Shown here: in pieces, positions 2,139 to 18,899 of the stretch
How the letters are laid out: every line of letters begins with the position of its first letter
How positions within the stretch are numbered: position 1 is the stretch's first letter
Source of the DNA: Candidatus Auribacterota bacterium
Lineage (GTDB): Bacteria; Auribacterota; UBA6266
Direction: 5' to 3'
Length of the DNA stretch: 32,000 bases
NCBI GenBank assembly: GCA_023136205.1
Contig: JAGLRQ010000079.1
Location: 1,749-33,748, forward strand
Made by a program: the position numbers and the translations under genes
The notes under the pieces: model-generated
Database searches by the model: none
What the model was told of the DNA's origin: nothing
Seen by the model: only the letters and a program-made list of their open reading frames with translations

Positions 2139-3729
2139 ATGAAAAAGATATCTGAACTTAATCTAGGATTCAACGATGCAGAGAATTATCACAGGAGAGA
2201 AAACAAAGACTTATTTAATACAATTTTTATCAAGAACATTTTTTTTGATAAAATATTACAACCAAGCACCTTTTTTCTTATCGGCGAGAAAGGCACAGGA
2301 AAAACAGCATACGCTGTTTACCTAAACAACAATGTACATTTTGATACACTATCTGAACTTAAATACATTAGAGAAACAGATTACCAAAAATTTGTAACAT
2401 TAAAAAAAAAATAAACATCTTCAGTTATCTGATTATTCTAGTATTTGGAAAGTTATTATATTGCTTCTATTGGCCAAAAGCGTTGAAAGCGATGAGTTAG
2501 ATCATGGCCCCTTTGCCAAGAATAAAAGAATTAACGCATTAATGAAAGCAATAGATGAATATTATGCAAACGCATTTGCTCCAGAAATCATCTATGCGCT
2601 AGATTTAGTAGAAAATTCAAAAACAGCTGCAGAATTAATAACCAAATACCTAAAACTAATAGGGGAGAAAACAGTTAGTACCAGTTTTCACGAATCTAAA
2701 TTCCAAGTAAACCTTTTATATATCCAAAATCAATTTGAAAAGGCATTATATGATATAAAGATTAAGAAAAATCATGTTTTATTTATAGATGGAATAGATA
2801 TACGACCTGGAGTTATACCATATAAAGATTATCTAGAATGTGTGAAGGGACTAGCTAATGCGGTGTGGAGTTTAAATAATGACTTTTTCCCGAAAATCAG
2901 AGATTCAAAAGGTAGATTCCGAACAGTTTTATTGTTGCGACCTGATATTTTTAATACACTTGGTCTACAAAATCAAACTAATAAAGTGAGGGATAACTCT
3001 GTTTTTCTTGATTGGCGTACAACTTACCCTGAGTATAGCAATTCTAGCATTTTTGAATTATCAGATAAACTGTTAGCAGCACAACAAAATACGGAATTAA
3101 AATTGGGTGAAGCATGGAATTATTATTTTCCTTGGCAATCAAGACCAACTAGCCCTGAAAGATTCTTCGACCCATCATTTTTTAAATTTCTTAGACTTTC
3201 TTATTCAAGGCCCAGAGATATAGTTACAATGATCCAAATATTGCAAGAAACAACTATCGAAAATCACAAAAAATCACAAAAAACTTTTGATGAAAAAGCC
3301 CTCGATAGCAACGATTTTCGCAATAAATATTCTGAATATTTAATGGGTGGCATTAAGGATCAATTATCCTTTTATTACTCATCTAAAGATTATGAAATGT
3401 TTCTTAAATTCTTTAATTATTTAAACGGGAAAGGTGCATTTGATTATAAGGAATATATCTCAGCATATAACTTATTTACTGATTATATATTACATAATCA
3501 CACCGATATTCCTGAATTTGTTGAAACACCAGATACTTTTTTGCAATTTTTATACGACACAAATATTATATGTTATATTGAAATTTTAGAAGGGAAAACC
3601 TTATTTAGATGGTGTTATAGAGAAAGGAGTCCCTCCAACATATCTCCTAAAGTAAAGCTTAATGTCCATTATAATGTCCATTATGGCCTGATGAAAGCCT
3701 TGAATCTCGGATTCAAGAAAACAGAATAA
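2139..3729 (+). pseudogene. P-loop NTPase (STAND/Sll1717-like, family uncertain), reading frame broken at an A10 tract
   Basis: Track ORF 2139-2414 carries Walker A (FFLIGEKGTGKTAY). Track ORF 2461-3729 carries a Walker-B-like HVLFIDGIDIRP and a later YSRPRDIV motif. The frame of the second ORF is open back to nt 2404, and the two frames meet inside the A run at 2402-2411. Deleting one A gives a single 529-aa ORF (...YQKFVTLKKKNKHLQLSDYSSIWKVIILLLLAKSVE...). GAGG lies 7 nt upstream of the ATG at 2139, and the gene sits 37 nt after the XRE stop. Confidence 0.7.
2402..2411 (+). repeat. Homopolymer A10 at the frameshift point of the NTPase gene
   Basis: Counted directly: t(2401), a x10 (2402-2411), t(2412). 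Frame 0 stops at TAA 2412-2414. The frame of the second ORF is open from 2404 onward. Confidence 0.95.
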
Positions 3730-4027: not shown

Positions 4028-5648
4028 CCAGTCTCATTGCCTCAAGAAGAAATGTTACCATTAGTTACAACCTGCGTCTACACCAATTGGGGCAACTACT
4101 GCCTGTCCAATATTTTTATCTAAACATGAATACACTAACTGCTTTGCCATAATCTGCCTCCACTCCTGAACTCGCCGTTGCAGAGTTCTCAATTGACCAT
4201 CTGTGAATTTTCCAGGATGATCTTTCTGAAGCCGTTCAAATAACAATTTAGCAGTAGTATCAGGTTCACTTTGTAGCCATTGGAGTACATCGGGCCAAAC
4301 TTTTTCGAATGGATTTTTCCGCGTTCTCCAATAATGAGGTTTTGTTATAGTTTTTTGATGTGTTGGACGCACCTCGCCAGAATGCCAGAGTTGTGGTAGT
4401 TGTGCAAGAAATTGCTCTAAGCTATTTCGACCCGGGCCAGTGGATTCATTCGGAGAAACCAAAGCAGCTAATGCGGCTTGGTCGTCTCGTATACGATGTA
4501 GTAAATACACGGGGTCAAGTTCTTTGCGCTGCAATTGGAGTTTTTCCTTTGTTGATTGCATGACAGTAGGGTTGTTACACAAACGCTCACAAGGTGTCAT
4601 CGGTTTGTCATACAATCGCTTGACCTTGGATCCTTCTCGCTTCTTTTCTCGCAATTTGAAGGAAGGCTGGTAATAATTTACATAAAACCTAACCGCTCGG
4701 TATAGATGAGCAAGTGCTTGACCGGCTACGACTCCTGAAAAACGCTCATATCCAACAAACCGCCGTATCACCGCCCCATTCTTTTGTTCGATCCAAGCTT
4801 GGTCATTTGGGCAAGACGGTCGTGATCGAGTAAAGTCAATGCTATGATTTTTGCAATATGAAAGTAGCGTATCGTTGATAAAAGCACTATCGTTATCAGA
4901 GTCGATTCTTAGAATGGGAAATGGTAGTTGCTGTCGCAGTACCTCAAGTCCCTCCACCACAAGGGATTGTTCTCTCGCCAGAAGCGGAATACACTCGACC
5001 CAACCTGAATATATATCTGTTGCAACAAGGCTGTGGATAAAAGAACCGGCCATGGATCCGCCACCGTGCACCACAAAATCGATTTCTAAATATCCTGGAG
5101 ATGGTTCATTCCAATCTGCAAATGTATGGACAGGCACTTGCGCACTGACTTTATTTGGCTTTCGGCGACGTTTTCTACGTGAACATCCCTGTTTCCGAAC
5201 ATCCGAAAGCAACCGGTCGAGAGTTGCTGCGCTGGCTAAAAGTAGTCGTCGCCTCACCTCTGGGTCGAGTTCTATATGACCGTGACGTTCCATCGCATCC
5301 ACTAAATTAGGCAATATAGCCTTTAGTCTCTTACCGCAAATTCGATCTGCGACTTCCCAAGTAACAATTAATGCTTCTCTCACAGCTTCGTTGTAAATGC
5401 GTCTGCTTTTGGTAGGTTTATTATCAAAGCCTGCCAGATTTCTGTTTCCAAGCAGGCGAGTAGCGTGTTTTCGGTGATATCCGGCAACCGCAACAAACTC
5501 GTCCAATATCCTCGCCTTTTCATTTTTTGGAGCCTTTATATAACGATTTCTCAGGACTTCCAAGAGTTCATTTCTTGTATGCTTACTAATTTTTTTCCCC
5601 ATTTTTTGCCTCCTGATTTTGGTAACATTATCATGAGGCAACGACTGG
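4028..5648 (-). mobile_element. Insertion sequence (~1.6 kb) with one rve-type DDE transposase gene; outer ends approximate
   Basis: Imperfect terminal inverted repeats. Left is CCAGTCTCATTGCCTCAAGAAGAAATGTTACC (4028-4059). The reverse complement of 5621-5648 is CCAGTCGTTGCCTCATGATAATGTTACC. The single ORF fills the space between them. The interior is visibly GC-richer than its flanks, and the element interrupts a recognisable PLD gene. Confidence 0.75.
4061..5602 (-). CDS. DDE (rve/integrase-core) transposase, possibly ISNCY-like
   Basis: DDE candidates are LEIDFVVHGG, RIDSDNDSAFIN and AWIEQKNGAVIRR. The N-terminus has an HTH-like KNEKARILDEFVAVAGYHRKHATRLL. I place the start at the internal Met (MGKKISKH..., plus-strand cat at 5600-5602) because AGGAGG lies 6 nt upstream of it. 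The track start at 5641 sits inside the right inverted repeat. Confidence 0.85.
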   Translation of the reverse strand: MGKKISKHTRNELLEVLRNRYIKAPKNEKARILDEFVAVAGYHRKHATRLLGNRNLAGFDNKPTKSRRIYNEAVREALIVTWEVADRICGKRLKAILPNLVDAMERHGHIELDPEVRRRLLLASAATLDRLLSDVRKQGCSRRKRRRKPNKVSAQVPVHTFADWNEPSPGYLEIDFVVHGGGSMAGSFIHSLVATDIYSGWVECIPLLAREQSLVVEGLEVLRQQLPFPILRIDSDNDSAFINDTLLSYCKNHSIDFTRSRPSCPNDQAWIEQKNGAVIRRFVGYERFSGVVAGQALAHLYRAVRFYVNYYQPSFKLREKKREGSKVKRLYDKPMTPCERLCNNPTVMQSTKEKLQLQRKELDPVYLLHRIRDDQAALAALVSPNESTGPGRNSLEQFLAQLPQLWHSGEVRPTHQKTITKPHYWRTRKNPFEKVWPDVLQWLQSEPDTTAKLLFERLQKDHPGKFTDGQLRTLQRRVQEWRQIMAKQLVYSCLDKNIGQAVVAPIGVDAGCN

Positions 5649-6218
5649 CACTTGGCAACAAAAGTTATGAGTCAAGGCGATGATGAGATTGTTATCATAG
5701 GAAGCACAAACTGGTCTAATTCAGCCTTAAGAAGAAACAACGAAACCTCTGCCCTTATAAAATCCAAGGAGCTGGCAAAATCTCTTCTTACAAACTTCTT
5801 CCATATCGCCATTGATTATGAGGCAAGTAAATCAATTCATCAAAAAGCTTCTCCCCTTGCAATATGCAGATATTTTTTGGAAGACTCCGATCTGGCAGGT
5901 AGAATGATGACTTCCCGCGATGAAAGAGCCTTTGATGTATATCTCTTGCTCCTGAAAGATAACCTTGCAGAGTCAGGGTTTAACTATAACAAGATAGCCT
6001 TGCAATTGGGTTTAGACAAGAAAATGGCTGTGAATGACTATAGAAGACAGATCAACAAGACCTTAAGAAAGCTTGAGAGCCAATACAACTTAACGGACGA
6101 GTACGGAAAAGAGCAAGTCCCAGAGGCATTTGATATAGTTTCCCAAAAGGCGATAGACAATCCCAGAAAAACTTATAAATATGTCGTGGGGATTTTGAGA
6201 AATGCTGCAGTCCCCTGA
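5649..6218 (+). pseudogene. C-terminal fragment of the same PLD-family gene, with a DnaD-like or winged-helix-like tail
   Basis: KVMSQGDDEIVIIGSTNWSNSALRRNNETSALIKSKELAKSL is the second half of an HKD motif region (GSxNxS...N-N-E). The frame is open only from 5637. No RBS or plausible independent start is present. The C-terminal AIDNPRKTYKYVVGILRN resembles the DnaD-type ...RN..YI..ILRNW motif. Confidence 0.6.
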
Positions 6219-6307
6219 AATAAGTATTGTGTTTCCGAAATTCCTTTTAGAAGGCGGAGAAATGCTTGATCTATGTTAAGATGTTTCTATAAAATGAATT
6301 ATGTATT

Positions 6308-6469: not shown

Positions 6470-6515
6470 AAAATAGGTGTCCGTCTATCATTTCACTCAT
6501 TTTGTCAAAAATATC

Positions 6516-7148
6516 ATGGATAAAGCAGAGCAAATTAAAACTGAAGCTATCAAATGGTTACTTAAAGGAAATTTATCCTTTAAATCCAACAGGGATGCGA
6601 TTGGGACAGAAGTCCTTTTTTCTGTAAAGAGGAGAAAGGCTGATTTACTAATTCTTTCTACCAATACCCATGCAATTGAAATAAAGAGCGATTTCGACAA
6701 GCTTGACAAATTAAAAACGCAATTACAAGATTACTACAATTCATTTGATAAAGTATCGGTCATAACTACCCTGAGACATGTTTGCAATATTAAAAAAGTT
6801 TTATCCCCAAAGGCTGGCTTAATTATTTTTGATAATGCATCTTTCAAAGTTTTAAGAAAAGCAAAGCGACAAAAACGATTAAACAAAAGCTCATTATTAA
6901 TGTTCCTGCCAAAAGATGAATTAACCAAAATATATAGGGCACCAAGAGGTCAACGACTTTCCGTAACAGAAATACGTATGAGGATTAAGAACCAATTAAA
7001 TGCGGACGAAATCAGGGAAAAAGCTTTCTCGCATTTAAAAAAACGATACAGAAAGCTTTTTGAATTATTCCTACATGATACCGCTGGCATTATAATCTGG
7101 GATGAGCTTCGGGGGTTATCTGGTAAGATCAATAAGTTGCATGGTTAA
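6516..7148 (+). CDS. sce7726-family-like protein (MmcB-like PD-(D/E)xK nuclease fold)
   Basis: RKADLLILSTNTHAIEIKSDFDKLDKLKTQLQDYYNSFDKVSVIT shows the D...E-x-K core and the downstream L..Q...Y...FD pattern I associate with the sce7726/MmcB family. The track start is GTG 6477. I prefer ATG 6516 (MDKAEQIKTEAIKWLL) but cannot decide between them. Confidence 0.7.
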   Translation: MDKAEQIKTEAIKWLLKGNLSFKSNRDAIGTEVLFSVKRRKADLLILSTNTHAIEIKSDFDKLDKLKTQLQDYYNSFDKVSVITTLRHVCNIKKVLSPKAGLIIFDNASFKVLRKAKRQKRLNKSSLLMFLPKDELTKIYRAPRGQRLSVTEIRMRIKNQLNADEIREKAFSHLKKRYRKLFELFLHDTAGIIIWDELRGLSGKINKLHG

Positions 7149-8227
7149 AAGAGATTATTCCTGAGAGTGATGTAAATATTCATTCTGATTGAAATCCAAA
7201 AGGAAGGTGAAAGCCCTTGCGGATATCCTTCTGATGCTGATTCAATCTGTTTAATGCCCCAACAATTTCTTACATTATTTTTTGTTCTTCTATATGCCTT
7301 TTTACCAACAATCATTTGAGCAACTCTTTTGTAAGCATCAGCGTAAGTTCTTTCTATATTACTTCTTCTTGAACGATGATAAAATATCTGGTTTTCCGTC
7401 GGAACGTCAATTCTTGGTATCCACCCATTCCCGCCGGCCTGATCACTCCTAACTGGATGAATGGAAGCATAATCACTATAAACAATTTCCTTGTCGATGT
7501 TATCATTTACCCGAGTATAAAATTCTACTTCCTCAAGATTAAAAGTCCCATCATCTTCGCCCCCAAATTCCGTTGGATTTTTAGGGTATGAGGTTGCAGA
7601 TAAAACAAGCTTTTCAATGGAATAGTTTTCCAATTCTTTAATTAAACTTTTTGCCTTCGTTGCGTTATCTTCGGCTTTACCTTGTGTTATAAACCCGAAG
7701 TCCATAAGAACAATCAGCTTACTAATTAAGAGCGCCTCGTTAATAATATCGAGATCGTGTTTATAGTCTGGGTAATCTGCGGGGAAACGATAAACGAGAG
7801 ATTCAAACTTCCCATCTAAAGCCTCTACCTGTTCTTTTAATCGTTCATTATATTCTTTCTCATTAGAAACATCTTTATCGGATATTTGAATTGTGGGAAT
7901 TATAGAAGGGAAATCTTCTTGAAGTTCTGTCACCAATGTAACCCATTTCCCATAGCCCTTTGTAGTAGTTTGCAACCCTTCAATCTGTTCATTAATTAAA
8001 TTTGGTTCTGTCGTTAAATCAAGAATAAAGCACCTATCCTCAAAAACTTCTTCCAATTTTCTCAACCTTCTGTAGATATCACCACCTTCCAAGTATTTCG
8101 TCCTTCGAGATTTTGTTAATTCCACTAACGGCGTGATCTTATCTTTCACATCACTGGAAAGATTTTTTAAAGCTCTAAGTTCAGCGTCGGTCGTCTTAAT
8201 TATTGGAATATAAGTAATATCGCTCAT
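7145..8227 (-). CDS. Beta-protein family (PF14350-like, sce7725-like) protein
   Basis: The N-terminus YIPIIKTTDAELRALKNLSSDVKDKITPLVELTK matches the Y-x-P-x-L/I-K...E..AL..L......I-x-P-L-x-E signature of the phage P4 Beta / sce7725 family. The ATG overlaps the ImmA stop (plus-strand tcat at 8224-8227). Confidence 0.75.
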   Translation of the reverse strand: MSDITYIPIIKTTDAELRALKNLSSDVKDKITPLVELTKSRRTKYLEGGDIYRRLRKLEEVFEDRCFILDLTTEPNLINEQIEGLQTTTKGYGKWVTLVTELQEDFPSIIPTIQISDKDVSNEKEYNERLKEQVEALDGKFESLVYRFPADYPDYKHDLDIINEALLISKLIVLMDFGFITQGKAEDNATKAKSLIKELENYSIEKLVLSATSYPKNPTEFGGEDDGTFNLEEVEFYTRVNDNIDKEIVYSDYASIHPVRSDQAGGNGWIPRIDVPTENQIFYHRSRRSNIERTYADAYKRVAQMIVGKKAYRRTKNNVRNCWGIKQIESASEGYPQGLSPSFWISIRMNIYITLRNNLF

Positions 8228-8775
8228 AAACCATGTCCTGACATTCCTAAACTTTTTGCTCTTAGTCGCACAGTCAAAGTAGAAACCTTAAAGAATCTTG
8301 CCAAATCTTTAATTTCCTTAACCCCAGACCGTACTTGTTTTTTAAATTTATATTCAGGCATTAATATTTCACTAGCAAATTCGTTAGCCTGCCATTCTGA
8401 TCTTTTAGATTCTCCACCTCTAAAAAAAATCTTATCCTCAAAAATATGGCTTAAATGTTTATGCTTACAAAAATGACCTAATTCATGAGCAATTGTATAT
8501 CTTTGCCTGTTGGGATGATGATAAGTATTCACTTGTATTCTCCATTGTCCCGACTCTTCATCATAAAAAAGCTTGCCAGAAAGATCATCACTTAACTCAA
8601 CAAACTCCACCCTAATACCAAGTTTTTTAGCTAAGTCTTCCACGTCCAAAGGGTCGCAATTAACTTCATGGGCCTTCGCGAAGCGTATCAATTTATCTGC
8701 AGTATCAATTAAAGCAATATCATTCTTATTGGCTTCTTGTCGGGTTAAAAATATTTTACGTCTTACTATTGCCAT
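8224..8775 (-). CDS. ImmA/IrrE-family (M78-like) zinc metallopeptidase
   Basis: HEXXH motif in RQRYTIAHELGHFCKH, with the downstream EWQANEFASEILMP typical of ImmA/IrrE. The start codon directly abuts the stop of the upstream membrane-protein gene (8775/8776). Confidence 0.85.
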   Translation of the reverse strand: MAIVRRKIFLTRQEANKNDIALIDTADKLIRFAKAHEVNCDPLDVEDLAKKLGIRVEFVELSDDLSGKLFYDEESGQWRIQVNTYHHPNRQRYTIAHELGHFCKHKHLSHIFEDKIFFRGGESKRSEWQANEFASEILMPEYKFKKQVRSGVKEIKDLARFFKVSTLTVRLRAKSLGMSGHGL

Positions 8776-9414
8776 TTAGCCCTTCCTTTTCTTTGGAAAA
8801 CTCTGGCCTCTCAGGTGTTTCCTTCCCTGATGCGGCGCATCTGTATCCTTAACTTCATCATAACTTCTTGCATTTAATGTTTTTTCGAGAAATTCAATTC
8901 TATCTTCTAGGTTAAGCACTTGCATTAATTCATCCGAATTTTTAAATTCTGTAAATTTCATATCTATAATATTTTTTAAAATAATCTGAAATGATTCACT
9001 ACACTCCAAAGCCTCATTAGCCAACTCTCGAGCTTGGTGTCTTGATGAAAAATACACATACATAAAACTAACAGCCATTAAAACACCAATAACACTTAAT
9101 AATAATGTTATTATAAGTTCATAAAAATCTGTTATTTCTTGAGTATAAAATTCCAATGAATGGTTATATTTACTCTCGGTTAAAATTGCTCCTTTTTCTT
9201 GTTGCGGGCTCGGAGTTTTTATTTGTAATTCTTTGAGGTCTTTTTCATGGACATTTGTATTAACTGTCTGTTCTTCTTGAGTTTTTAGAGATTCTGAAGC
9301 CAAAGAAGGTGTTACATTCAGGAAATATCCCATAAACATAGCATATGTTACGCTGATCAAAAACAATACAGTGCAAAACAATATTTTCGATGAATATTTC
9401 TTTTTCTTATCCAT
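8776..9414 (-). CDS. Two-TM membrane protein, first gene of the ImmA/Beta operon
   Basis: Hydrophobic segments ILFCTVLFLISVTYAMFMGYFL and LIITLLLSVIGVLMAVSFMYVYF. The C-terminal region is helical and charged, ending in a basic tail (GRKHLRGQSFPKKRKG). No family recognised. Confidence 0.6.
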   Translation of the reverse strand: MDKKKKYSSKILFCTVLFLISVTYAMFMGYFLNVTPSLASESLKTQEEQTVNTNVHEKDLKELQIKTPSPQQEKGAILTESKYNHSLEFYTQEITDFYELIITLLLSVIGVLMAVSFMYVYFSSRHQARELANEALECSESFQIILKNIIDMKFTEFKNSDELMQVLNLEDRIEFLEKTLNARSYDEVKDTDAPHQGRKHLRGQSFPKKRKG

Positions 9415-9722: not shown

Positions 9723-10604
9723 ATGAGTTTTGATTTCAATCCAAATATAAGAAAGTTTTCATTTAAAAATGCTTTAATACTCGCTGAAGCATCGGAATTA
9801 GCCTACAAATCACGAGCGGAATATAAAAAGATTCTTAAAGAAAAGTGGGGATTCTCGGATATTTACCCCCTGGATAAAAATGAGACCCAGGGTTTTGTTG
9901 CAAAGAAAGAAGATATGATATTAATTGCTTTTCGGGGGACGGAAGAAACAAAGAATGAAGATATATTTACAGATATACTGGCGTGCCAGACAAAAACAGA
10001 ACTGGGAAAAGTCCATTATGGGTTTTTACGGGCCCTTAAAGCTGTCTGGAAGGACGTGCTGACAACAGTTAAGAATTATCAGGACAATAATCAGCCTGTA
10101 TGGATTACAGGACATAGCCTGGGAGGGGCTTTAGCCGCCCTTGCTTCCGCCAAGCTCGCATCAATAAATGCATGTCAAAAGATTACCGGGGTATATACAT
10201 TTGGACAACCAAGAGTAGGAGATAAAAACTTCAAAGAAAATTTTGAAAGGTTACTTCCAGGCGGAACCTATAGAGTTGCCAACTTTAAGGATCCGGTTAC
10301 TCTGGTGCCATTGAATATTAATTTAAAAATATGGGAAAAACGCATAATCTTTCAATACGATCATGCGGGTAAAATTATATTGTTTAATGAAGCCGGGGAA
10401 ATAGCTGAATCCGGTGATTTGGTTACGCGATGGGTGTTAATTTGGGTAGCTGTTTTAGGTTTTGTAGTTGCGTTGATTGTAAAAATGTTGAGAAAAATGA
10501 AATTAGCAGAGGGATTGTTAAAATTGTTTAAAAATCCGGCAACCCCGCATGGGCTAGATCAATATAAAGAAAATATTATTAAAAATTTAGCACACAACAG
10601 GTAA
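9723..10604 (+). CDS. Class-3 (fungal-type) lipase / alpha-beta hydrolase with a C-terminal TM helix
   Basis: Nucleophile elbow WITGHSLGGALAALASAKL, with FRGTEE upstream and FGQPRVGD downstream, as in Lipase_3. The C-terminal hydrophobic segment is WVLIWVAVLGFVVALIVKML. The start is moved to ATG 9723 (GAGGG lies 5 nt upstream). The track start is 9663. Confidence 0.8.
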   Translation: MSFDFNPNIRKFSFKNALILAEASELAYKSRAEYKKILKEKWGFSDIYPLDKNETQGFVAKKEDMILIAFRGTEETKNEDIFTDILACQTKTELGKVHYGFLRALKAVWKDVLTTVKNYQDNNQPVWITGHSLGGALAALASAKLASINACQKITGVYTFGQPRVGDKNFKENFERLLPGGTYRVANFKDPVTLVPLNINLKIWEKRIIFQYDHAGKIILFNEAGEIAESGDLVTRWVLIWVAVLGFVVALIVKMLRKMKLAEGLLKLFKNPATPHGLDQYKENIIKNLAHNR

Positions 10605-12343: not shown

Positions 12344-13345
12344 ATGAAAAAGACTGAAAAAATAAAATATGAAATTGACCCGCATAACAGGCTCATCTTC
12401 ACAAAAACAGGAAGAAAGTCAAAACTCCCCAAGTACAGAGAAGTTATTGACGGCAGAATCAAAATAGATAAAAACAACTCTTTTATCTACCATGTAAAGC
12501 AACCTCAAGATTCTAAACTTCCCCAACAGGTTAAATTTTCGGGGAAATGGTACTTAAATAAGAATCATGATCTTGTACTTACCTTAGATAAGAAACATAA
12601 GATGTATGCCGGAGATAAGCTCACAATAAAAGGGGAGATAAAAGATGCAAAAGCAAATAAGCTAGTGTTCTCTGTTGCAGCAAAAGATATTTTGAATCAA
12701 CCTCGGGAATATATCTTAAACCTTAGCGGCAGTTGGCAAGCTGACAAATATAACCGTCTGACATTCAACGTAAAAAGAAATAAAGGCATAACAGACATAT
12801 TAACTTTTAAAGGTGGCTGGAGCATTAATAAACAGAATCAGATTATATATACTTATGAGAAAGCACATTTAAAAACCAAGAAAAGGGTAACTAAGACTAT
12901 AAACTTTAAAGGGCATTGGAATATAACGGAAAAACACAGAATTTTATACGTTTTAAATAAAAAAATAGATTCACAATTTGATTTTAAGGTAAGTCTGGGA
13001 AAACCGCTTAAAAGAGGGCTTCAATATAAAATAGGGATAGGAAGTGTTCCTTCTAAGGAAAAGATAACTCTCTTTGGGGAATGGAAGGTAAATAGAAGAT
13101 TAGGTGTTTTGTTTGAAATGCCGTATGAAAAAGGAATCCTTCAAAGGATTGTTTTTGGAGCAAGCTGTAAACCGGGTAAAAACAGCACTATTGAGTTTAA
13201 ACTGAGAAACGAACTAGGAAAAGATCTGGGAATGGATATTAAGCTTTCAAAAAAAATACTAAAAGATCAGGGTGAGATTTTCCTGCGCGCTATCACATCA
13301 AAAAAAGAGAAGCAATTTTTAATCGGCGGTGGGTGGAGATGGTAG
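12344..13345 (+). CDS. Lys-rich repeat protein of unknown function
   Basis: At least five copies of F/L-x-G-x-W-x-(3-4)-N/H-x-L/I-x-F/Y: FSGKWYLNKNHDLVLTL, LSGSWQADKYNRLTFNV, FKGGWSINKQNQIIYTY, FKGHWNITEKHRILYVL, LFGEWKVNRRLGVLFEM. The start is moved to ATG 12344 (MKKTEKIKYEIDPHN). The track start is TTG 12290. Confidence 0.6.
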   Translation: MKKTEKIKYEIDPHNRLIFTKTGRKSKLPKYREVIDGRIKIDKNNSFIYHVKQPQDSKLPQQVKFSGKWYLNKNHDLVLTLDKKHKMYAGDKLTIKGEIKDAKANKLVFSVAAKDILNQPREYILNLSGSWQADKYNRLTFNVKRNKGITDILTFKGGWSINKQNQIIYTYEKAHLKTKKRVTKTINFKGHWNITEKHRILYVLNKKIDSQFDFKVSLGKPLKRGLQYKIGIGSVPSKEKITLFGEWKVNRRLGVLFEMPYEKGILQRIVFGASCKPGKNSTIEFKLRNELGKDLGMDIKLSKKILKDQGEIFLRAITSKKEKQFLIGGGWRW

Positions 13346-13353
13346 CAAACAAA

Positions 13354-13396
13354 TTCCGGTGATACAATACCCCATTACCCAAATATCTTCTCCCTC
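13354..13396 (-). repeat. Copy 1 of a ~43-nt junction motif; relic 3' end of a third copy of the small duplicated gene
   Basis: TTCCGGTGATACAATACCCCATTACCCAAATATCTTCTCCCTC. Ungapped hand counts give 31/43 identical to 14500-14542 and 30/42 identical to 16505-16546. On the minus strand it still encodes ...R-E-K-I-F-G-stop, compared with REGLFG-stop and REGKFW-stop in the intact copies. Confidence 0.6.
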
Positions 13397-13518
13397 TTAT
13401 TTTTGCAACAAAAAATCGTTCTACCCCGGGGGTGAAATGGTTCCGTTTATATTAATTTTTCCCCTTGATTTCAATTTGGTTTTATTGTAAAGTCGTCCCG
13501 CAAAGAAGGAGATATAGC

Positions 13519-14037
13519 GTGGGAAATGCAGAGGCAGAAGAAAAACTAGTAGAAGCCCCTAAATTATCGGTAAAACCTATAGAGGCTCAAAAAAAAGAGC
13601 CAGAAATGGCTATAGAGGGTAAAAAGTTTTTAACACCAGTAACTGGTAAGTATACAGATGAAATTATAGAAGAAGTGGCCAAAATATCTATAGATGAGTT
13701 AGATCAACCAGGTGGGTGGAAAAAGTTGCTTATTGCAATGTATAAAGAAAAAGCTTATGAAAACAGAACACTTCAGGACAAGGTTAATGCATTAAATATT
13801 ACAAATTCTGATTTGGGTAAAAAATTAGGAGTGGCCAAAGAAAGGCTTCGGCACACAACTGGTGTAGGAGTCGCGTTTGGGATTTTATATATAATTGCGG
13901 GAGCTATGTTAGCATATCTGGCCTCTTTGCCAGATAGTTTAATTAGGACAATATTATTTTGGTTGGCAATAGGAATATTTGTAGTGTGTACTGGTTATCA
14001 TCTTTGGAATAGCAAAAAGCAAAAGGATGTTGAATAA
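13519..14037 (+). CDS. Hypothetical protein: charged/coiled-coil N-terminal part plus two C-terminal TM helices
   Basis: AAGGAG lies 7 nt upstream of GTG 13519 (track start TTG 13465). A heptad-like segment LLIAMYKEKAYENRTLQDKVNALNITNSDLGKKLGVAKERL is followed by GVGVAFGILYIIAGAMLAYLA and ILFWLAIGIFVVCTGYHLW. Confidence 0.6.
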   Translation: MGNAEAEEKLVEAPKLSVKPIEAQKKEPEMAIEGKKFLTPVTGKYTDEIIEEVAKISIDELDQPGGWKKLLIAMYKEKAYENRTLQDKVNALNITNSDLGKKLGVAKERLRHTTGVGVAFGILYIIAGAMLAYLASLPDSLIRTILFWLAIGIFVVCTGYHLWNSKKQKDVE

Positions 14038-14051
14038 ATGGAAAGCTTAAA

Positions 14052-14441
14052 ATGAGTGAATCAATAATTGGTGCTTTTGAGATAATTGGGATAAGAGATG
14101 CTGGTAATCTGGCAGAGGAAAGAGTATTGTTCCGAGCGATAGAGCCTGTATCATTAGAGTATTATGTTGTTGTTAATGTGAAAACGACTAATGGAAATAA
14201 ATTAATTATTCTTAATGATAAAATATTTTGGTTCCCAATTATGTCTGTTAATCCAGGCGAGTTTGTTAGGTTATATACCAAGAGTGGTTCATATGCAAAA
14301 ACAACATCGACATATGGTCAACTACCCGCCACATATCATAATTATTATTGGGACTTAAGTGCTCCTATATGGGATGGTGTGAAGTCTAACGCAGTTACTA
14401 TCTTTAAGGTGAGCAACTGGAACACCGCATATCAACCTTAG
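14052..14441 (+). CDS. Small soluble beta-rich protein, possibly lamin-tail-domain-like
   Basis: 129 aa, starting 14 nt after the previous stop. The pattern EERVLFRAIEPVSLEYYVV ... FWFPIMSVNPGEFVRLYTKSG ... YWDLSAPIWDGVKSNAVTIFKV resembles the E-[FY]-V-E-[IL]...[FY]-x-F-P...L-x-P-G-x-x-x-x-V-x-[ST]-G...W...N-x-x-D-x-[IV]-x-L layout of LTD beta-sandwiches. This is by-eye similarity only. Confidence 0.5.
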   Translation: MSESIIGAFEIIGIRDAGNLAEERVLFRAIEPVSLEYYVVVNVKTTNGNKLIILNDKIFWFPIMSVNPGEFVRLYTKSGSYAKTTSTYGQLPATYHNYYWDLSAPIWDGVKSNAVTIFKVSNWNTAYQP

Positions 14442-14499
14442 GAAGAGAAAAATAATTACTTCATTACTATAAAGCCAGTTGCGAAACTCGTCTTACAAG

Positions 14500-14714
14500 T
14501 TCCAGGAACACAACACCTAATCACCCAAACAACCCCTCCCTCACACAAACCTCAAAAACATCATTCCTCAACCTAATTTTCTTAATTTGAGATTTTGGTA
14601 TCCAGATTTTCTCCACATTTTCAACCAAAATTGCCTTTTCAGTTTCGTGGAGTATTCTACCCTGAACCCAGATATATTTTGGTTTTGGATATAACAGTCT
14701 GTAAACATTTAAGG
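14500..14714 (-). repeat. Copy 2 of the duplicated block: junction motif plus small gene
   Basis: About 215 nt is colinear with 16505-16719. The first 43 nt are TTCCAGGAACACAACACCTAATCACCCAAACAACCCCTCCCTC. The encoded proteins are roughly 80% identical over the aligned region (estimated by eye). Confidence 0.85.
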
Positions 14715-14739
14715 AAAAAGGAGTCAGCACCCTTTTCAA
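14521..14739 (-). CDS. Small conserved hypothetical protein, paralog A (72 aa)
   Basis: FSLNVYRLLYPKPKYIWVQGRILHETEKAILVENVEKIWIPKSQIKKIRLRNDVFEVCVREGLFG aligns with the 16526-16729 product (FSIYRLLHSKPGYIWVQIRILHETDKAILVENVEKTWISKSQIRKIRLRNGVFEVYVREGKFW). Preservation of the ORF in both copies supports coding. Confidence 0.65.
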   Translation of the reverse strand: MKRVLTPFSLNVYRLLYPKPKYIWVQGRILHETEKAILVENVEKIWIPKSQIKKIRLRNDVFEVCVREGLFG

Positions 14740-14818
14740 ACTATTAGTAATTTGCTTACCAATTTTATAAGTTCATGTTTTTCTGCATATTTTGTTCAAA
14801 TGGGCGAGAATTAAACAT

Positions 14819-14850
14819 AAAAAAAGCGATGATTTATTCTCTTCGCTTTT
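14819..14850 (-). terminator. Candidate intrinsic terminator after the deaminase/zinc-ribbon operon
   Basis: Minus strand reads AAAAGCGA (14850-14843), a 13-nt loop, TCGCTTTT, then further T (an A run at 14819-14825 on the plus strand). It begins 27 nt downstream of the stop at 14877. The stem is short and AT-rich. Confidence 0.4.
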
Positions 14851-14876
14851 GTTAGACAGAAATTAGCCTTGTATAG

Positions 14877-15062
14877 TTATGCCTGTAAGCTCTTTTTTTC
14901 TATTGAGTCGCGGAACTTTTGAAAGTTAATTCCATAATCGTAATGTTCTAAATCTAGATGATCCCTATTAATCCACAAACAATCTCCCCATACACACCTT
15001 TCAACACCAGTGAAGGAATCATACTCTACACCAAATCTTTTACATTTTGGACATCTTTTCAT
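14877..15062 (-). CDS. Small zinc-ribbon protein (61 aa) downstream of the deaminase gene
   Basis: MKRCPKCKRFGVEYDSFTGVERCVWGDCLW gives CxxC ... C-x4-C. It lies 54 nt after the deaminase stop on the same strand, and a terminator-like hairpin follows. Confidence 0.55.
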   Translation of the reverse strand: MKRCPKCKRFGVEYDSFTGVERCVWGDCLWINRDHLDLEHYDYGINFQKFRDSIEKKSLQA

Positions 15063-15116
15063 TCCTTCTCCTATAATTAATTATACGTATACAACTATAA
15101 TAAGCAAGTTTTTTAA

Positions 15117-16397
15117 CTATAAATTTCTTTTAAAAAACCTATGAAATGATTTTGTTGTAACCCCTTCATATTTCTTAAGGTCCACATTGTTGGTTTTAAA
15201 CATATCAATAGCTAGAGATTCTTCCATTGGATATGCTTCTAAATATACGACTTGAATAATACCCGAAGCGATAATTTTTTTACAGCATAACATACAGGGG
15301 AAAGCAGAAGTATATAATTTTGTTCCATGCAATGATGTGCTTCCCAATCTGGCAGCTTGAATAATTGCTGCTTCTTCAGCATGTACAGCCCTGCAAACAC
15401 TCAATAATTTCCCAGGAAAAACTTCGTTTTTAAAACCACAATCTACACATAACTTGCTATTCTTTTCTAATTTATGCCCACATTTTCTACAATATATATT
15501 ATTTTCTAAAAACTCTTTCTTTATTTTGGCCCGATAACATTTTTCAGGGTATTTTTTCTTACAATCTTCGTCTTCGTAAGGGACATTATTGCAACCGGTG
15601 GCAATTACATATCCTATAGCGCCCTTCAATTTTTCTTTATCAAGTTCTTTTTTAAAAGAGTAAGTATCGCGAACTATAACTGCCCCTACTTGCCTTTTGG
15701 AACATCTTGATTGCAAAGCTACACTGCAGGCTTGGTGCATATACGCCTCATTAGGGTAAGGAGGCCTACTCTCAGAATTTTCTATGAGATCATAAAAATC
15801 GGATAATCTCTGTGCATAACTATCAATAATCTTACCATTTTTTGTCCCATCACAATCAAAAAAATCTTCTTCTGCATTAACAGAAATATCTGCCATTTCC
15901 ATGCATTTTTTTACTTGTTGCCCATGTAGATTTTTCGTATCCCCGGCGTCCCGTTTTTCAATCTCACCAAACTCGTCTTTATGTTTAAACAAATCTTTTA
16001 ATCTATCCCATCTTTTGTCATGGGATGCATCAATAGATAATAAAACAAAATGTTTTTTAAATTTTCTTTGAAAAGTTTCAATTTCATGTGGATTTCTGAA
16101 ACATTCAATTACAGCTTTTTTGGGCTTTCTTTTGCATATTTCTTCAACTATTGGAGCTACAGTTTCGGGGTTTTCAGGGTTCTTTTTTCTTAATTCATCA
16201 CCTAAATCTTGTAAAATCATTCTTTTTTTATTGGGTTGTTTCTTATCAAAATCTTTGACTTTTTTTTTCGCTTTTTCTTTCAACAATGCTGAAATACTAA
16301 AATATTCCATTCCTTTGGTATTATGAAAGAACTTACTGGTTTCAGTGCAACCAGATCCAAATCTTCCGGTTAATCCAATTATCATTGTATCTTTCAT
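15117..16397 (-). CDS. Nucleotide-kinase-like domain fused to a CMP/dCMP-type zinc deaminase (architecture of the anti-phage dCTP deaminase)
   Basis: The N-terminus IIGLTGRFGSGCTETSKF is P-loop-like, with Cys where the Walker A Lys is expected. The C-terminal half has ACSVALQSRCSKRQVGAVIV, GCNNVP, the zinc motifs CRAVHAEEAAI and AFPCMLCCKKII (H-A-E ... P-C-x-x-C), and an inserted zinc ribbon CRKCGHKLEKNSKLCVDCG. Confidence 0.75.
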   Translation of the reverse strand: MKDTMIIGLTGRFGSGCTETSKFFHNTKGMEYFSISALLKEKAKKKVKDFDKKQPNKKRMILQDLGDELRKKNPENPETVAPIVEEICKRKPKKAVIECFRNPHEIETFQRKFKKHFVLLSIDASHDKRWDRLKDLFKHKDEFGEIEKRDAGDTKNLHGQQVKKCMEMADISVNAEEDFFDCDGTKNGKIIDSYAQRLSDFYDLIENSESRPPYPNEAYMHQACSVALQSRCSKRQVGAVIVRDTYSFKKELDKEKLKGAIGYVIATGCNNVPYEDEDCKKKYPEKCYRAKIKKEFLENNIYCRKCGHKLEKNSKLCVDCGFKNEVFPGKLLSVCRAVHAEEAAIIQAARLGSTSLHGTKLYTSAFPCMLCCKKIIASGIIQVVYLEAYPMEESLAIDMFKTNNVDLKKYEGVTTKSFHRFFKRNL

Positions 16398-16504
16398 TTA
16401 TTTATATTTATTTTCAAAATAGAGATGGAGACTATTCTCCCTTAACATCCAAATCAAGGATTACACTATCAAATTAAATGTGGTTTTGCAAGGTGTTGTT
16501 GTAA

Positions 16505-16719
16505 TTCCAGCGACACAATACCCAATCACCAAAACTTTCCCTCCCGAACATAAACCTCAAAAACACCATTCCTCAGCCTAATTTTCCGGATTTGCGATTT
16601 CGATATCCAGGTCTTCTCTACATTTTCAACTAAAATAGCTTTATCGGTTTCATGCAAGATACGGATTTGAACCCAAATATACCCGGGTTTTGAGTGTAAC
16701 AGCCTGTAAATACTAAAGG
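16505..16719 (-). repeat. Copy 3 of the duplicated block: junction motif plus small gene
   Basis: TTCCAGCGACACAATACCCAATCACCAAAACTTTCCCTCCCG (33/42 identical to copy 2 by hand count), continuing colinear with 14500-14714 through the small ORF. Confidence 0.85.
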
Positions 16720-16729
16720 GTCTAAACAT
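16526..16729 (-). CDS. Small conserved hypothetical protein, paralog B (67 aa)
   Basis: See paralog A. It starts 4 nt after the stop of the HTH gene upstream (16734). Confidence 0.65.
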   Translation of the reverse strand: MFRPFSIYRLLHSKPGYIWVQIRILHETDKAILVENVEKTWISKSQIRKIRLRNGVFEVYVREGKFW

Positions 16730-16733
16730 AAGC

Positions 16734-16931
16734 TTACACCCCCTTCCACTTAATAGCGCGTTGGACTGTTTTACTGCTCACTCTCAGGGATTTGGCTATT
16801 TGGGTGCAGGTCATGCCCAGAAGATGTAATTCTGTGGCTTTCTGGGCTATTTTACGGTATAAAGGAAAGGCTTTAACAGGGAGAATTTTAATACAGGCAG
16901 AGATTTCGGAAAAAGTTCGAATTGGTTGCAA
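16734..16931 (-). CDS. Small helix-turn-helix protein (resolvase/IS-type HTH-like)
   Basis: AQKATELHLLGMTCTQIAKSLRVSSKTVQRAIKW resembles the HTH_7/HTH_23-type DNA-binding helix pair found at the C-terminus of small serine recombinases and in IS OrfA proteins. There is no catalytic domain. Confidence 0.5.
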   Translation of the reverse strand: MQPIRTFSEISACIKILPVKAFPLYRKIAQKATELHLLGMTCTQIAKSLRVSSKTVQRAIKWKGV

Positions 16932-17000
16932 CCGGGTCCGCCATTTTAACCACTTCGAACCTTTATTTCGGCAGTATTAAAAAAATGGGGACACATTGGG

Positions 17001-18899
17001 CTAGCCTACGGGTACCTGATTATTTGCAATATATTTTCTGATAATTTCTATAAATTCATCGGCGTAGGATTCTAATTTTTTCTCTCCTACACCAAAGATC
17101 TTCGCGAAAGCCTCTTTTGTAACCGGTTTTATTAGAGCCATATCTCTTAGTGACTTATCTCCAAAAATGATATATGCGGGGACTCCTTCATCATGAGCCA
17201 TTTCCGACCTTTTTTCGCGTAATGACCGGAACAATTCTTTATTTACTCCTTCCCAATCTTTTTCTCTTTTCTGTTTTCGCTTCGCCGCGACTTGTTTTTT
17301 CTTCGCGGTTACCAGCGGTTTTGTCAAAACAGGAACTATTTCTCCTTTCAGAACCTGTTTTCCCGATAATGTCAGGGATAGTGTTGAAAATTCTTCATCT
17401 CTTCGCAAAAAGCCCTGGCCCACCAACTGTTCAACCATATACCTGATAAAAGTAATTGATGACTCAGCCATTATGCCGAAAGTAGATAAGAGCTGATGAT
17501 TCATGCGGTTAACCTGATCGGTTGTTTTCCCTTTTAAAACATCGGCTACGCAGGATGCTCCAAACCCGAAGCTTTTTCCCCGGCTGACTCTTACAACACA
17601 CGATATAATTTTTTGAGCTGTGACCAATGATTCTTCAACCATTTCAAGCTCATTTAAACAGTAGTCACATGCCTGGCAGGAGGGTTTGTCATAATCCTGT
17701 CCGAAATAGTTTACAAGAAATCTATGCCTGCAGTGAGGACGGGAGCAGAAATTATAGAGGATGTTTAGTTTATCCATCATAACCTTTTCATGAGGTGATG
17801 TTTCTATGAAGGACCTCATAACCCGGTAATCCCCGCCTCCGAAAAACATGTAGCAGTGTGAGTTAAGCCCGTCGCGCCCGGCACGCCCGGTTTCCTGATG
17901 ATAATGTTCAATACTTTTCGGCATCGCGGCATGGATAATAAACCGGATGTTAGAGCGGTCAATTCCCATGCCAAAGGCAATGGTGGCAACAATTATATCA
18001 ACTTCTTCACGGATAAATTTGTCCTGGTTTATATGCCTGGTAGTGTCAGAGAGCCCGGCATGGTATGGAACATTCTTAAACCCGAGCGTATTCAGTTTCT
18101 CTGAAATATTTTCGACGTCTTTCCTCCGCAGACAATAGATAATCCCCGGTTCATCCGGGTGTTTTTCTAAAACGTCTGTTATCTGCTTTATTAAATTTGA
18201 ACGGGGTATCACCCTGTAGGATAAGTTTGGGCGGTCTATCTGCCTGATATGGATTTCAGGATTATTAAGCTGCAGCTGTTCCAAAATATCCTGCTGTACC
18301 GCTACAGTAGCCGTAGCTGTAAAAGCATGAACACAAGAGGATTTGAATCTTTCCTTGATAAACTTCAATTTGCGGTAATCTTCTCTGAAATCGTGTCCCC
18401 AATGGCTGATACAATGGGCTTCATCAATAACAAAAAACGCGGGGTTAACTGATGTTAAGAGGTTGATGGTTGATTTTTGCTGAAGGCGTTCCGGAGAAAT
18501 ATATAAAATTTTCACCTTCCGTTTTCTAATAAGGCTAATTTCTGTCATTTGTTCTTTTGGTGTCAGGCTGGAATTCAGACAGCTTGCTGTAATCCCCTTT
18601 GCTTTAAGGTCATCAACCTGGTCTTTCATTAATGATATCAGCGGTGAAATAACTACAGCCATACTTCCTTTTAACAAAGCCGGAAGCTGAAAACACAAAG
18701 ACTTCCCTCCTCCCGTAGGCATAACCGTCAATGACTCTTTTTCTCTCAGTATTGATAAAATTACATCTTCCTGCAAAGCCCGAAATGATGTATAGCCCCA
18801 GTATTGTTTTAAAGCTTCATACATGGGTTTCTGAAACCAATCCGTTTTTCCGCTCATTTTCGCGCAGACTCCAATAAATTTATCAGCCCGTAAAATCAT
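17001..18899 (-). CDS. recQ: ATP-dependent DNA helicase RecQ
   Basis: FRALQEDVI, motif I TGGGKSLCFQLPA, DEAH box VIDEAHCISHWGHDFR, QETGRAGRDG, the zinc-binding CRHRFLVNYFGQ...CQACDYC, and a C-terminal HRDC-like VPAYIIFGDKSLRDMA. The start may be the internal Met at 18857 (MSGKTDWFQ). Confidence 0.9.
   Translation of the reverse strand: MILRADKFIGVCAKMSGKTDWFQKPMYEALKQYWGYTSFRALQEDVILSILREKESLTVMPTGGGKSLCFQLPALLKGSMAVVISPLISLMKDQVDDLKAKGITASCLNSSLTPKEQMTEISLIRKRKVKILYISPERLQQKSTINLLTSVNPAFFVIDEAHCISHWGHDFREDYRKLKFIKERFKSSCVHAFTATATVAVQQDILEQLQLNNPEIHIRQIDRPNLSYRVIPRSNLIKQITDVLEKHPDEPGIIYCLRRKDVENISEKLNTLGFKNVPYHAGLSDTTRHINQDKFIREEVDIIVATIAFGMGIDRSNIRFIIHAAMPKSIEHYHQETGRAGRDGLNSHCYMFFGGGDYRVMRSFIETSPHEKVMMDKLNILYNFCSRPHCRHRFLVNYFGQDYDKPSCQACDYCLNELEMVEESLVTAQKIISCVVRVSRGKSFGFGASCVADVLKGKTTDQVNRMNHQLLSTFGIMAESSITFIRYMVEQLVGQGFLRRDEEFSTLSLTLSGKQVLKGEIVPVLTKPLVTAKKKQVAAKRKQKREKDWEGVNKELFRSLREKRSEMAHDEGVPAYIIFGDKSLRDMALIKPVTKEAFAKIFGVGEKKLESYADEFIEIIRKYIANNQVPVG

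Follow-up and report, generated by a model that had tools for sequence, protein, structure and literature searches.

A recurrent motif at a putative defence-island border in an Auribacterota genome combines the end of a small gene with a repeat that appears to be associated with RAYT-type transposases

Introduction

Insertion sequences (IS) such as IS608 and ISDra2 are transposed via single-stranded DNA, and the element is cleaved beside a short target sequence. In the IS200/IS605 group, which these two represent, the element ends are subterminal hairpins, not inverted repeats. A related group of enzymes is associated with repetitive extragenic palindromes (REPs), as exemplified by TnpA-REP of E. 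coli (PDB entry 4ER8) and by the REPINs of Pseudomonas fluorescens. REPINs are inverted REP doublets which form hairpins, single copies are regarded as their decaying remnants, and the genes of the REP-associated tyrosine transposases (RAYTs) are flanked by REPINs (PMC3337134); the architecture of hairpin doublets and flanked RAYT genes is likewise found in PMC5581495. The REPINs described so far are specific to lineages and passed on mostly by vertical inheritance. Here we analyse a window of 32,000 nucleotides (nt), i.e. the complete stretch from position 1,749 to 33,748 of contig JAGLRQ010000079.1 (assembly GCA_023136205.1, Candidatus Auribacterota bacterium), in which an initial annotation drawn up from the sequence alone had noticed a motif of ~43 nt that recurs at three module junctions. 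The sequence also corresponds to a stretch of contig DAOWCX010000014.1 (assembly GCA_030639325.1), to which the public record cited below refers. The motif is a composite: it consists of the 3' end (~20 nt) of a small gene, here referred to as SML, and a 23-nt diverged copy of an interspersed repeat. Comparison with other genomes indicates that this repeat very probably serves a very large family of RAYT-type HUH/Y1 transposases as their cis element. Thus, a puzzling direct repeat can be explained as a gene tail joined to a RAYT-associated repeat.

Results and Discussion

The motif joins the end of a small gene to a separate repeat

A repeat search of the window returned a three-copy family of 43 nt at positions 13352-13394, 14498-14540 and 16503-16545, all on one strand, and a direct repeat of 215 nt (14500-14714 and 16505-16719, 77% identity). 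The three same-orientation copies of the initial annotation are borne out by this result, with identities of 31/43, 30/43 and 33/43 upon recounting on its own coordinates, and so is the similarity of copies 2 and 3 over ~215 bp (166/215 positions identical). The proposed make-up of codons, stop codon and 3' flank holds as well: the last six to seven codons of SML and its stop are followed by a 23-nt flank, for which the consensus AATTAAGTATTGTGTCCCCGGAATT was derived. Copy 3 of this flank element (TTGGGTATTGTGTCGCTGGAATT, 16503-16525, minus strand) is located directly 3' of the stop codon of the SML3 gene and agrees with the consensus at 19/23 positions, and copy 2 (TTAGGTGTTGTGTTCCTGGAACT, 14498-14520, minus strand) follows the SML2 gene. 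In copy 1, the element (13352-13374, minus strand) is joined to a remnant of an SML tail of ~20 nt (13375-13396), both being part of a block of 134 nt (13348-13481) that contains a further ~85 nt of unknown origin. Altogether, the window copies depart from the consensus at 4-5 of the 23 positions. Beyond the last ~20 nt of the gene, local alignment of copy 1 with SML2 and SML3 gave no similarity above that of shuffled sequences, in agreement with the earlier description of this copy as a relic which retains only the 3' end of the gene and the flank. The by-eye impression of a 5'-truncated SML pseudogene of ~100 nt was dropped on the same grounds.

A degenerate 30-mer matched the three motif sites only, with 0.00 matches expected in shuffles, which is a circular test, the 30-mer being made from the window copies themselves. 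A 28-column weight matrix provides an outside reference, as the 217 instances of the flank motif used to build it all came from metagenomes and none from the window. Its four top matches in the window were at 16500-16527 (minus strand, 21.2 bits), 6218-6245 (plus strand, 19.0 bits), 13349-13376 (minus strand, 16.4 bits) and 14495-14522 (minus strand, 15.5 bits), and the fifth-best match scored 0.8 bits. Among the best scores in each of 200 simulated windows, the median was -4.9, the 95th percentile 4.1 and the maximum 9.2 bits. Copy 1, for which similarity at background level had been considered possible at the outset, is significant since its score exceeds the null maximum, and copy 2 also scores above that value. 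The second match represents a fourth copy of the flank element (ATAAGTATTGTGTTTCCGAAATT, 6220-6242, plus strand), which is absent from the initial list and stands directly after a fragment of an unrelated PLD-family gene.

The flank element is not tied to SML. In related loci (designated L001 and so forth), the alignment of the sequences 3' of SML revealed TT(A/G)(A/G)GTATTGTGT(C/T)nC(C/T)GGAA(T/C)T directly after the stop codon in L001, L010, L032, L037, L026 and L021. In L011 and L028 the repeat lies ~70 nt downstream of the SML stop, so that gene and repeat are separable. Unrelated genes of at least three kinds are followed by the repeat, namely SML, the PLD-family gene and, in L006, a homolog of an open reading frame (ORF) of 351 amino acids (aa) that adjoins copy 1 in the window. 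A first matrix scan of 420 kb of loci yielded ~60 matches compared to 2-4 expected, many of them far from any SML, and at least 120 metagenome stretches were found to contain the 22-mer TAAGTATTGTGTCCCYGGAATT without mismatch, on contigs that span 34-67% GC and in metagenome-assembled genomes (MAGs) assigned to several phyla. The initial query whether the motif occurs elsewhere can thus be answered: it is widespread. It is also far more widespread than the gene module to which SML belongs (see below), as this module was found in none of the 683 kb of repeat-selected loci.

In loci of Omnitrophota, the repeat has a conserved 5' extension of 27 nt, AAAAAGGRGACGGTTCTATTTTAAAGT (L012 9065-9113 and 9657-9705; L022 3770-3817 and 5819-5866; L024; L007 7955-8001). 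The extension is not coding, since the sequences upstream of it are unrelated and the reading frames are broken by stops; a family of genes ending in '..GDGSILK' and a stop, which had been considered to reside upstream of some repeats, is not a gene family and represents this conserved non-coding extension. The C-terminal end of SML was also considered as its counterpart and rejected, the similarity not being above that of shuffles.

Copies of the repeat flank RAYT-type transposase genes

Clustering of the ORFs from all loci identified one cluster that is present in 16 motif loci and constitutes a transposase family. The proteins of ~220 aa, with a C-terminal extension ending in ...RKPGPK, match Pfam Y1_Tnp with 45.1 bits (cut-off 23) and NCBIfam REP_Tyr_transpos with 74.1 bits, just under the cut-off of 80, and neither the HUH motif NHVHLI nor the tyrosine of RYVExNP varies among 24 aligned homologs. 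A PDB sequence search found nothing; the kinship was seen by fold search, in which the AlphaFold2 model (pLDDT 87.4) had its best match in 4ER8, the complex of E. coli TnpA-REP with a REP hairpin (E = 9e-9), while the transposases of IS608, ISDra2 and IS200 were matched at ~1e-4. Thus, the protein has the HUH/Y1 fold of the IS200/IS605 transposases, and is closer to TnpA-REP. The family comprises at least 7,669 clusters at E ≤ 1e-20 and is named 'transposase', where it is named, in MAGs of Omnitrophota and Elusimicrobiota.

Inverted copies of the repeat flank the RAYT gene in L113, L115, L045, L075, L097 and L069 as well as in the complete Omnitrophota genome CP070837.1 (L177). These copies have their TTAAGT ends towards the gene and their GGAATT ends away from it, with the left copy in antisense orientation, and the stop codon of the RAYT gene is the TAA inside the right-hand copy. 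The GTGTTG variant, as present in copy 2 of the window, also flanks a RAYT gene in the complete Omnitrophota genome. Among adjacent repeat pairs no more than 150 nt apart, 31 have their TTAAGT ends inward, none has the opposite polarity and 19 are tandem; folded as single-stranded DNA, an example doublet reached -28.5 kcal/mol (z = -11).

These comparisons strongly suggest that the flank element is the cis repeat of this very large RAYT-type HUH/Y1 transposase family. By its architecture it is a repeat family of the REPIN-RAYT type, in phyla for which, as far as our literature searches show, no such family has been described earlier; a search for the repeat sequence itself found nothing relevant. 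In common with REP/REPIN-RAYT systems there is a short interspersed extragenic repeat, a transposase gene with inverted flanking copies, non-autonomous inverted doublets (spacer 10-150 nt) that form long hairpins, decayed singlets, and an enzyme with HUH motif, conserved tyrosine, Y1_Tnp domain and the fold of 4ER8. In contrast, each single REP in those systems is an imperfect palindrome, which the 23-nt singlet is not. Moreover, one 22-mer is shared here by RAYTs of 49-66% identity, whereas the REPINs described so far are specific to lineages, and the outer ...CCGGAATT part of the element is often reiterated in nested partial copies. The non-palindromic singlets and the wide range of the 22-mer in GC content and taxonomy therefore bear on how REPIN-RAYT systems persist and spread. 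The early idea that the conserved 3' flank might itself be a recombination site is supported insofar as the flank is a separable DNA element linked to an enzyme of recombination, the RAYT transposase whose genes it flanks.

With respect to the partial copies, nested and ever shorter versions of the outer part (...TGTCCCCGGAATT nnn CCGGAATT nnn GGAATT) have accumulated immediately beyond the element, at either flank of RAYT genes. Such reiterations were observed in L047, L049, L053, L054, L058, L068, L069 and L155, and at RAYT flanks in L069, L097, L107 and L115. Such a pattern would be expected if one AATT-ended site were cleaved and joined several times over, or were used for insertion more than once.

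As the copies in the island loci stand in sense orientation directly after stop codons, often with a ribosome-binding site and a start codon 11-45 nt further on, it might be speculated that the element acts at the level of RNA, as a signal in the 3' untranslated or intergenic region for stability, processing, termination or translational coupling, and that it is possibly bound by the SML protein. The latter shows sub-threshold likeness to RNA-binding beta-barrels (Rho_RNA_bind, E = 0.04; RNase P p29, E = 0.05), and S1, EF-P and eIF5A appear in its list of fold matches. However, the rule that the motif always lies in sense orientation after a stop codon is true of the island loci and does not extend to the broad metagenome set, in which 36 sense and 30 antisense copies were counted within 6 nt of a stop. 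A known RNA family or a tRNA fragment was rejected, with no Rfam match at gathering thresholds and no tRNA or tmRNA found in the window, and so was a promoter or intrinsic terminator: consensus scans of 13200-17100 were not enriched over shuffles, and no site coincides with the motif. The singlet is unstructured, and the inverted flanking of RAYT genes and the single polarity of the doublets are signatures of DNA transposition. A function in RNA is, in our opinion, highly improbable, and we favour a DNA-level element of the RAYT type.

The SML genes and their helix-turn-helix partner

As annotated initially, copies 2 and 3 of the motif continue through complete paralogous ORFs on the minus strand. 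SML2 (72 aa, 14521-14739) and SML3 (67 aa, 16526-16729) are intact and 75% identical. The 215-bp repeat formed by the two genes had been taken as a duplication bracketing the deaminase cassette. This reading has to be revised: SML2 and SML3 are old paralogs under purifying selection and do not stem from a recent duplication, since the synonymous sites are saturated (proportion of synonymous differences 0.67, dS 1.65) at a dN of 0.16 and a dN/dS of 0.10. Their flanks are identical at 18/23 positions. SML matches no family in Pfam, NCBIfam or PADLOC and has a weak PHROG match only, and the family is small, a search of 1.8 billion proteins having yielded 148 representatives (E ≤ 1e-3). The AlphaFold2 model of SML3 (pLDDT 76.6) has five strands arranged as a small beta-barrel, for which the closest PDB entry, an SH3 domain, was matched with a non-significant E of 0.2; based on this model, SML is predicted to be an SH3-like small beta-barrel protein. 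The closest homolog of SML2, P0001, likewise has no helix-turn-helix (HTH) gene upstream and is followed by the repeat. A 129-aa protein encoded in the window and the closest relatives of SML carry the label Candidatus Aureabacteria, a taxon now treated as the phylum Auribacterota within the PVC group.

The SML copies without an HTH gene have a conserved 5' leader, GGGAAAGTCCC ... GGACTGTCCCCTTTTTCTT, which comprises a hairpin and a run of T residues (L006 5040-5110; L163 440-500; window ~14700-14745). The leader looks like a terminator or attenuator, and the corresponding stretch at SML2 of the window seems to have become part of the extended N-terminus of the ORF.

SML3 is preceded by a gene for an HTH protein of 65 aa (16734-16931, minus strand), the first gene of the HTH-SML module. 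The protein matches Pfam HTH_23 with E = 1.5e-5 (25.1 bits, cut-off 24.6). An earlier assignment to a resolvase-type DNA-binding helix next to copy 3 is not supported: the resolvase family HTH_7 is matched at E = 0.079 only, the protein consists of the HTH alone with no catalytic serine-recombinase domain found, and its conserved partner is SML. A PDB sequence search gave no relatives. By tblastn, nearly all of 32 related loci were found to have an HTH homolog immediately 5' of SML and in the same orientation; these loci are from assemblies labelled Omnitrophota, Aerophobetes, Planctomycetia and a few other taxa, the latter probably via mis-binning, and several of these contigs hold two to four HTH-SML copies in a shared orientation. 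The public gene tables of the contig call neither the HTH gene nor SML2; both are conserved as proteins in many loci. A phage origin of the module was considered and rejected, as only two distant viral relatives were found and a looser version of the motif occurs in one viral contig only.

The DNA at the start of the HTH gene is conserved as well, reading GGCGGACC(C)GGTTGCAACCAATTCGAAC (window ~16925-16975, minus strand; L001 ~9770-9810; L006 ~1100-1150), and an inverted repeat with TTCGAA at its centre, GTTCGAAgTGGTT ... AACCAaTTCGAAC, lies before it. Other loci have a perfect CTGGGATTCGAATCCCAG palindrome. This DNA was not called as a tRNA by ARAGORN; the palindromic sequence before the start may be an autoregulatory operator.

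The module and its cargo at putative defence-island borders

According to the gene maps, the module is mostly opposite in orientation to all its neighbours, and contigs often end just 3' of it. The 104 proteins encoded within 6 kb downstream of the modules matched 223 PADLOC models (E ≤ 1e-10), among them GajA/GajB (Gabija), a type III restriction enzyme, Dsr1, SoFic, pAgo, LmuB (Lamassu), PtuA (Septu), AriA (PARIS), mad3 and several PDC candidates, and their Pfam families form a very mixed set. Of the 86 proteins within 6 kb upstream, which matched 74 PADLOC models, most are core, with murI and queD five times each, a KDO transferase (waaA) four times, lpxK, a lipid A acyltransferase and gidA. 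This distribution places the HTH-SML(-repeat) module at the border between core genes and a highly variable defence island in Auribacterota, Omnitrophota, Aerophobetes and other MAGs. The window agrees with this pattern: the core gene recQ (17001-18899, minus strand; NCBIfam TIGR01389, 672 bits, cut-off 640) is followed by HTH, SML and repeat, a dCTP deaminase and further variable genes. In minus-strand direction from recQ, the order is HTH, SML3, copy 3, deaminase, zinc ribbon, SML2, copy 2, the pair of a transmembrane (TM) and a beta-rich protein, and copy 1, to which the end of the convergent 351-aa gene is directly adjoined. The window accordingly holds one full HTH-SML-repeat module by recQ, one SML-repeat unit without HTH, one remnant and one further repeat singlet. 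Instead of the two units drawn initially (13397-14499 and 14543-16504), the units by transcription are HTH-SML3-repeat-deaminase-zinc ribbon and then SML2-repeat. HTH-SML followed by the repeat is a compact marker of defence-island borders in poorly known phyla of the PVC group and related ones, and could help to find anti-phage genes.

A conserved edge gene, of whose 3' end a part recurs beyond the cargo, and, in one locus, contact with a tmRNA gene are also features of islands integrated at the 3' ends of tRNA, tmRNA or protein genes. Accordingly, the SML 3' end with its flank might be the attB attachment site of integrase-driven islands, where the look-alike carried by an incoming element leaves direct repeats, here copy 2 and copy 1, as at tRNA and tmRNA genes. 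Direct repeats indeed surround self-contained cargo, and the same layout is found with other cargo in L001. Remnants of an SML end plus repeat are of similar length in the window, L001 and L010; the repeat of the module abuts the tmRNA gene in L037, and a tRNA-Ser gene is near the module in L010, L020 and L035. The stop of many contigs right after the module would also be in line with this explanation. However, neither a tyrosine nor a serine recombinase was found in the window, where nothing resembles a recombinase gene except that of an rve transposase (4061-5641), which resides within a PLD gene, and no integrase family was found among the first 25 of 125 families of proteins encoded in the 6 kb downstream. 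Identity between the repeats amounts to no more than 70-77%, no long identical core was found, and an att core would not explain that the flank element independently flanks RAYT genes and forms hairpin doublets. We therefore regard integration at an attachment site as unlikely, and retain the reading as a gene tail with a RAYT-associated repeat.

A further resemblance is that to integron cassettes, in which a short conserved site resides at the 3' end of unrelated genes and variable cargo is stacked by a fixed platform. In contrast to integrons, IntI and attI were not found, the cargo lies in both orientations, and the enzyme family is HUH/Y1 and not that of the tyrosine recombinases. An integron attC site was rejected, as the 23-nt site has no imperfect palindrome of the attC type and no integrase was found among the window ORFs scanned.

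The cargo between copies 3 and 2 includes a dCTP-deaminase-like protein of 426 aa (15117-16397, minus strand), which matches PADLOC dCTPase (4.2e-84), Pfam dCMP_cyt_deam_1 and, below the equivalog cut-off of 400 bits, NCBIfam NF041025 (2.5e-73, 247 bits). As in the anti-phage dCTP deaminases, its N-terminal part resembles a P-loop kinase and a cytidine/dCMP deaminase domain makes up the C-terminal part; apart from the lower NCBIfam score, the locus differs in that a zinc-ribbon-like ORF of 61 aa (14877-15062, minus strand) with a CxxC...C pattern follows 3' of the deaminase. This ORF is called in the public record and has no match in Pfam, PADLOC or NCBIfam. The TM and beta-rich genes (13465-14441) are on the opposite, plus strand, the TM ORF spanning 13465-14037 (172 aa in the public record). 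Neither protein has a match in Pfam, PADLOC, NCBIfam or PHROGs, and the genes (TM protein ~157-172 aa, beta-rich protein 129 aa) form a conserved overlapping pair in the window and in L170-L176, with occurrences in Auribacterota, in Saganbacteria (L174) and on unassigned metagenome contigs. The pair had been proposed to be a unit of its own, and as a self-contained two-gene cassette it proves to be one. In distant taxa (L174; L170-L173) it is found in unrelated surroundings in which the repeat is absent, and it therefore is a horizontally moving cassette, while the repeat belongs to the recipient locus. The pair is a candidate for a new two-gene conflict or defence cassette.

Similarity breakpoints and a proposed role of the repeat at cargo junctions

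Ten SML-repeat units from the window, L001, L010, L032, L037 and L026 have a mean pairwise identity of 0.57 over the last 23 nt of coding sequence plus stop and of 0.68 over the repeat, and of 0.25 and 0.28 over the next two 23-nt stretches. Since identity falls from 0.68 to 0.25 at this point, similarity stops at the outer GGAATT end of the repeat. On the side of copy 1, the post-stop sequence of the 351-aa gene is common to a remnant in L006 up to CAAA(C/A)(A/G)AAT, and the two part at the start of the antisense repeat. The copy 1 block is 72% identical to L001 11141-11269 (E = 1e-20), where it follows a SocA_Panacea gene and a gene for 111 aa downstream of the HTH-SML-repeat of that locus. 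Thus, the window and L001 have a common layout of SML, repeat, cargo, remnant and repeat, with different cargo between shared flanks. This accords with the initial placement of the copies at module junctions, as they sit between unrelated gene sets, and the arrangement is not one that is fixed among related genomes. The suggestion of cargo swapping at the copies is supported by L001 insofar as the same layout holds other cargo; active swapping is not, given that five contigs of the same population share the exact arrangement.

As a side observation, the L006 remnant (2760-2850, minus strand; window 13257-13354) is an isolated ~90-nt 3' end of a gene resembling that for 351 aa, and so a further example in these islands of a gene tail that lacks its 5' part. 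The full-length L006 homolog of this ORF (8321-9301) has its own repeat in sense orientation; the window gene abuts copy 1 tail to tail.

Based on these findings, we consider it fairly probable, and well short of certain, that the locus is explained by a gene tail with a RAYT-associated repeat, in a module at the island edge, whose repeat units are recombination-prone junctions between cargo. The repeat would be a DNA-level site of binding and cleavage for a RAYT supplied in trans, and its outer GGAATT end would be the joining point, which would explain why similarity stops there and why partial reiterations are piled up in other genomes. AATT both precedes and ends the repeat, so that an insertion beside AATT would recreate the target, and this would account for the nesting of the reiterations. 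Dispersed SML-repeat units would thereby provide recombination-prone junctions for the exchange of defence cargo, which might proceed by homologous recombination between the conserved flanks or through breaks made by the transposase. That cargo has been turned over at the junctions is what we infer from the comparison of loci. The window copies are most likely old singlets that record past events and not an active system, because they have 4-5 mismatches to the consensus and no RAYT is nearby.

Several observations weigh against this explanation. No RAYT gene was found in the window (best tblastn E = 0.6); in the related locus L001, a 5'-truncated RAYT gene is located ~1.5 kb from the HTH-SML module. 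The repeat singlet has no palindrome of its own, the consensus 28-mer folding with 0 kcal/mol and no better than shuffles, and the window copies with their flanks also fold no better than shuffles. The occurrence of the same 22-mer beside RAYTs only 49-66% identical, on contigs of 34-67% GC, is unlike the lineage-specific REPINs. The repeat was considered as a part of the TM and beta-rich cargo, and this was rejected upon its absence from the cassette in other taxa. At the level of strains, five further contigs from the same study show the window arrangement at 99.8-100% identity, so that the arrangement is fixed, and neither an excision product nor an alternative junction at the repeat end was seen among the contigs of this population. 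One contig (L166) diverges from the window at 14463, which is 22 nt past the gene for the 129-aa protein, with another 35 nt to go to the repeat, and hence not at the motif. Its last 38 nt (L166 8413-8450, equivalent to the window from 14464) are new sequence that matches no other sequence compared; the divergence may reflect either variation of the junction between strains or an error of assembly. Finally, SML truncations of several other kinds are present in L009, L014, L023 and L035, and plain deletion therefore also shapes these loci.

In view of these points, descent alone might be held responsible: a gene with its 3' flank would have been duplicated as one module long ago, one copy would have been mostly deleted, and both the junction pattern and the likeness to RAYT repeats would be without present function. 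The distance of the copies from the consensus, the missing RAYT, the fixed arrangement in the five contigs and the variously truncated SML copies are all compatible with such a history, as is the view of REPIN singlets as decaying remnants (PMC3337134). What argues against it is that the flank is better conserved than the neighbouring codons (0.68 versus 0.57 across the ten units) although synonymous sites are saturated, that the repeat directly follows the SML stop in orthologs as distant as those of L010, L032, L037 and L026, and that in L011 and L028, ~70 nt downstream, it is a separable unit. Thus, descent without any role of the repeat seems rather doubtful to us, and we continue to favour repeat units as cargo junctions.

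If the repeat ends prove to be points of recombination, HUH transposases would be linked to the turnover of defence islands. In its most far-reaching form, the GGAATT end would be the joining site of the HUH transposase, cassettes of gene and repeat would be stacked by a fixed HTH-SML platform in an integron-like exchange in Auribacterota, Omnitrophota and related phyla, and the repeat family, conserved across phyla while its transposase diverges to ~50% identity, would represent a REPIN lineage of unusual age or one that spreads horizontally; taken as a whole, we deem this version quite unlikely.

Further features of the window

The fourth repeat copy resides in a different part of the island. 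A gene for an rve-domain transposase of 526 aa (4061-5641, minus strand) is located directly upstream of a 188-aa PLDc_2 ORF (5652-6218). Since this ORF matches the PLD domain in its C-terminal part only and lies beside the rve transposase, the PLD-family nuclease gene appears to be split by an IS. The intact homolog of the split gene in L006 ends in the same repeat, and the position homologous to 6220-6242 carries TTAAGTATTGTGTTTCCGGAATT there. The subsequent cluster at 6477-9414 comprises a Phage_P4_cII-like ORF (6477-7148, plus strand; according to the precomputed matches of the public record) and, on the minus strand, an ORF for 212 aa, a Peptidase_M78 (ImmA/IrrE-like) gene and a 'Beta_protein' (PF14350) gene. 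By its gene content, this cluster looks like a conflict system composed of a regulator and an effector.

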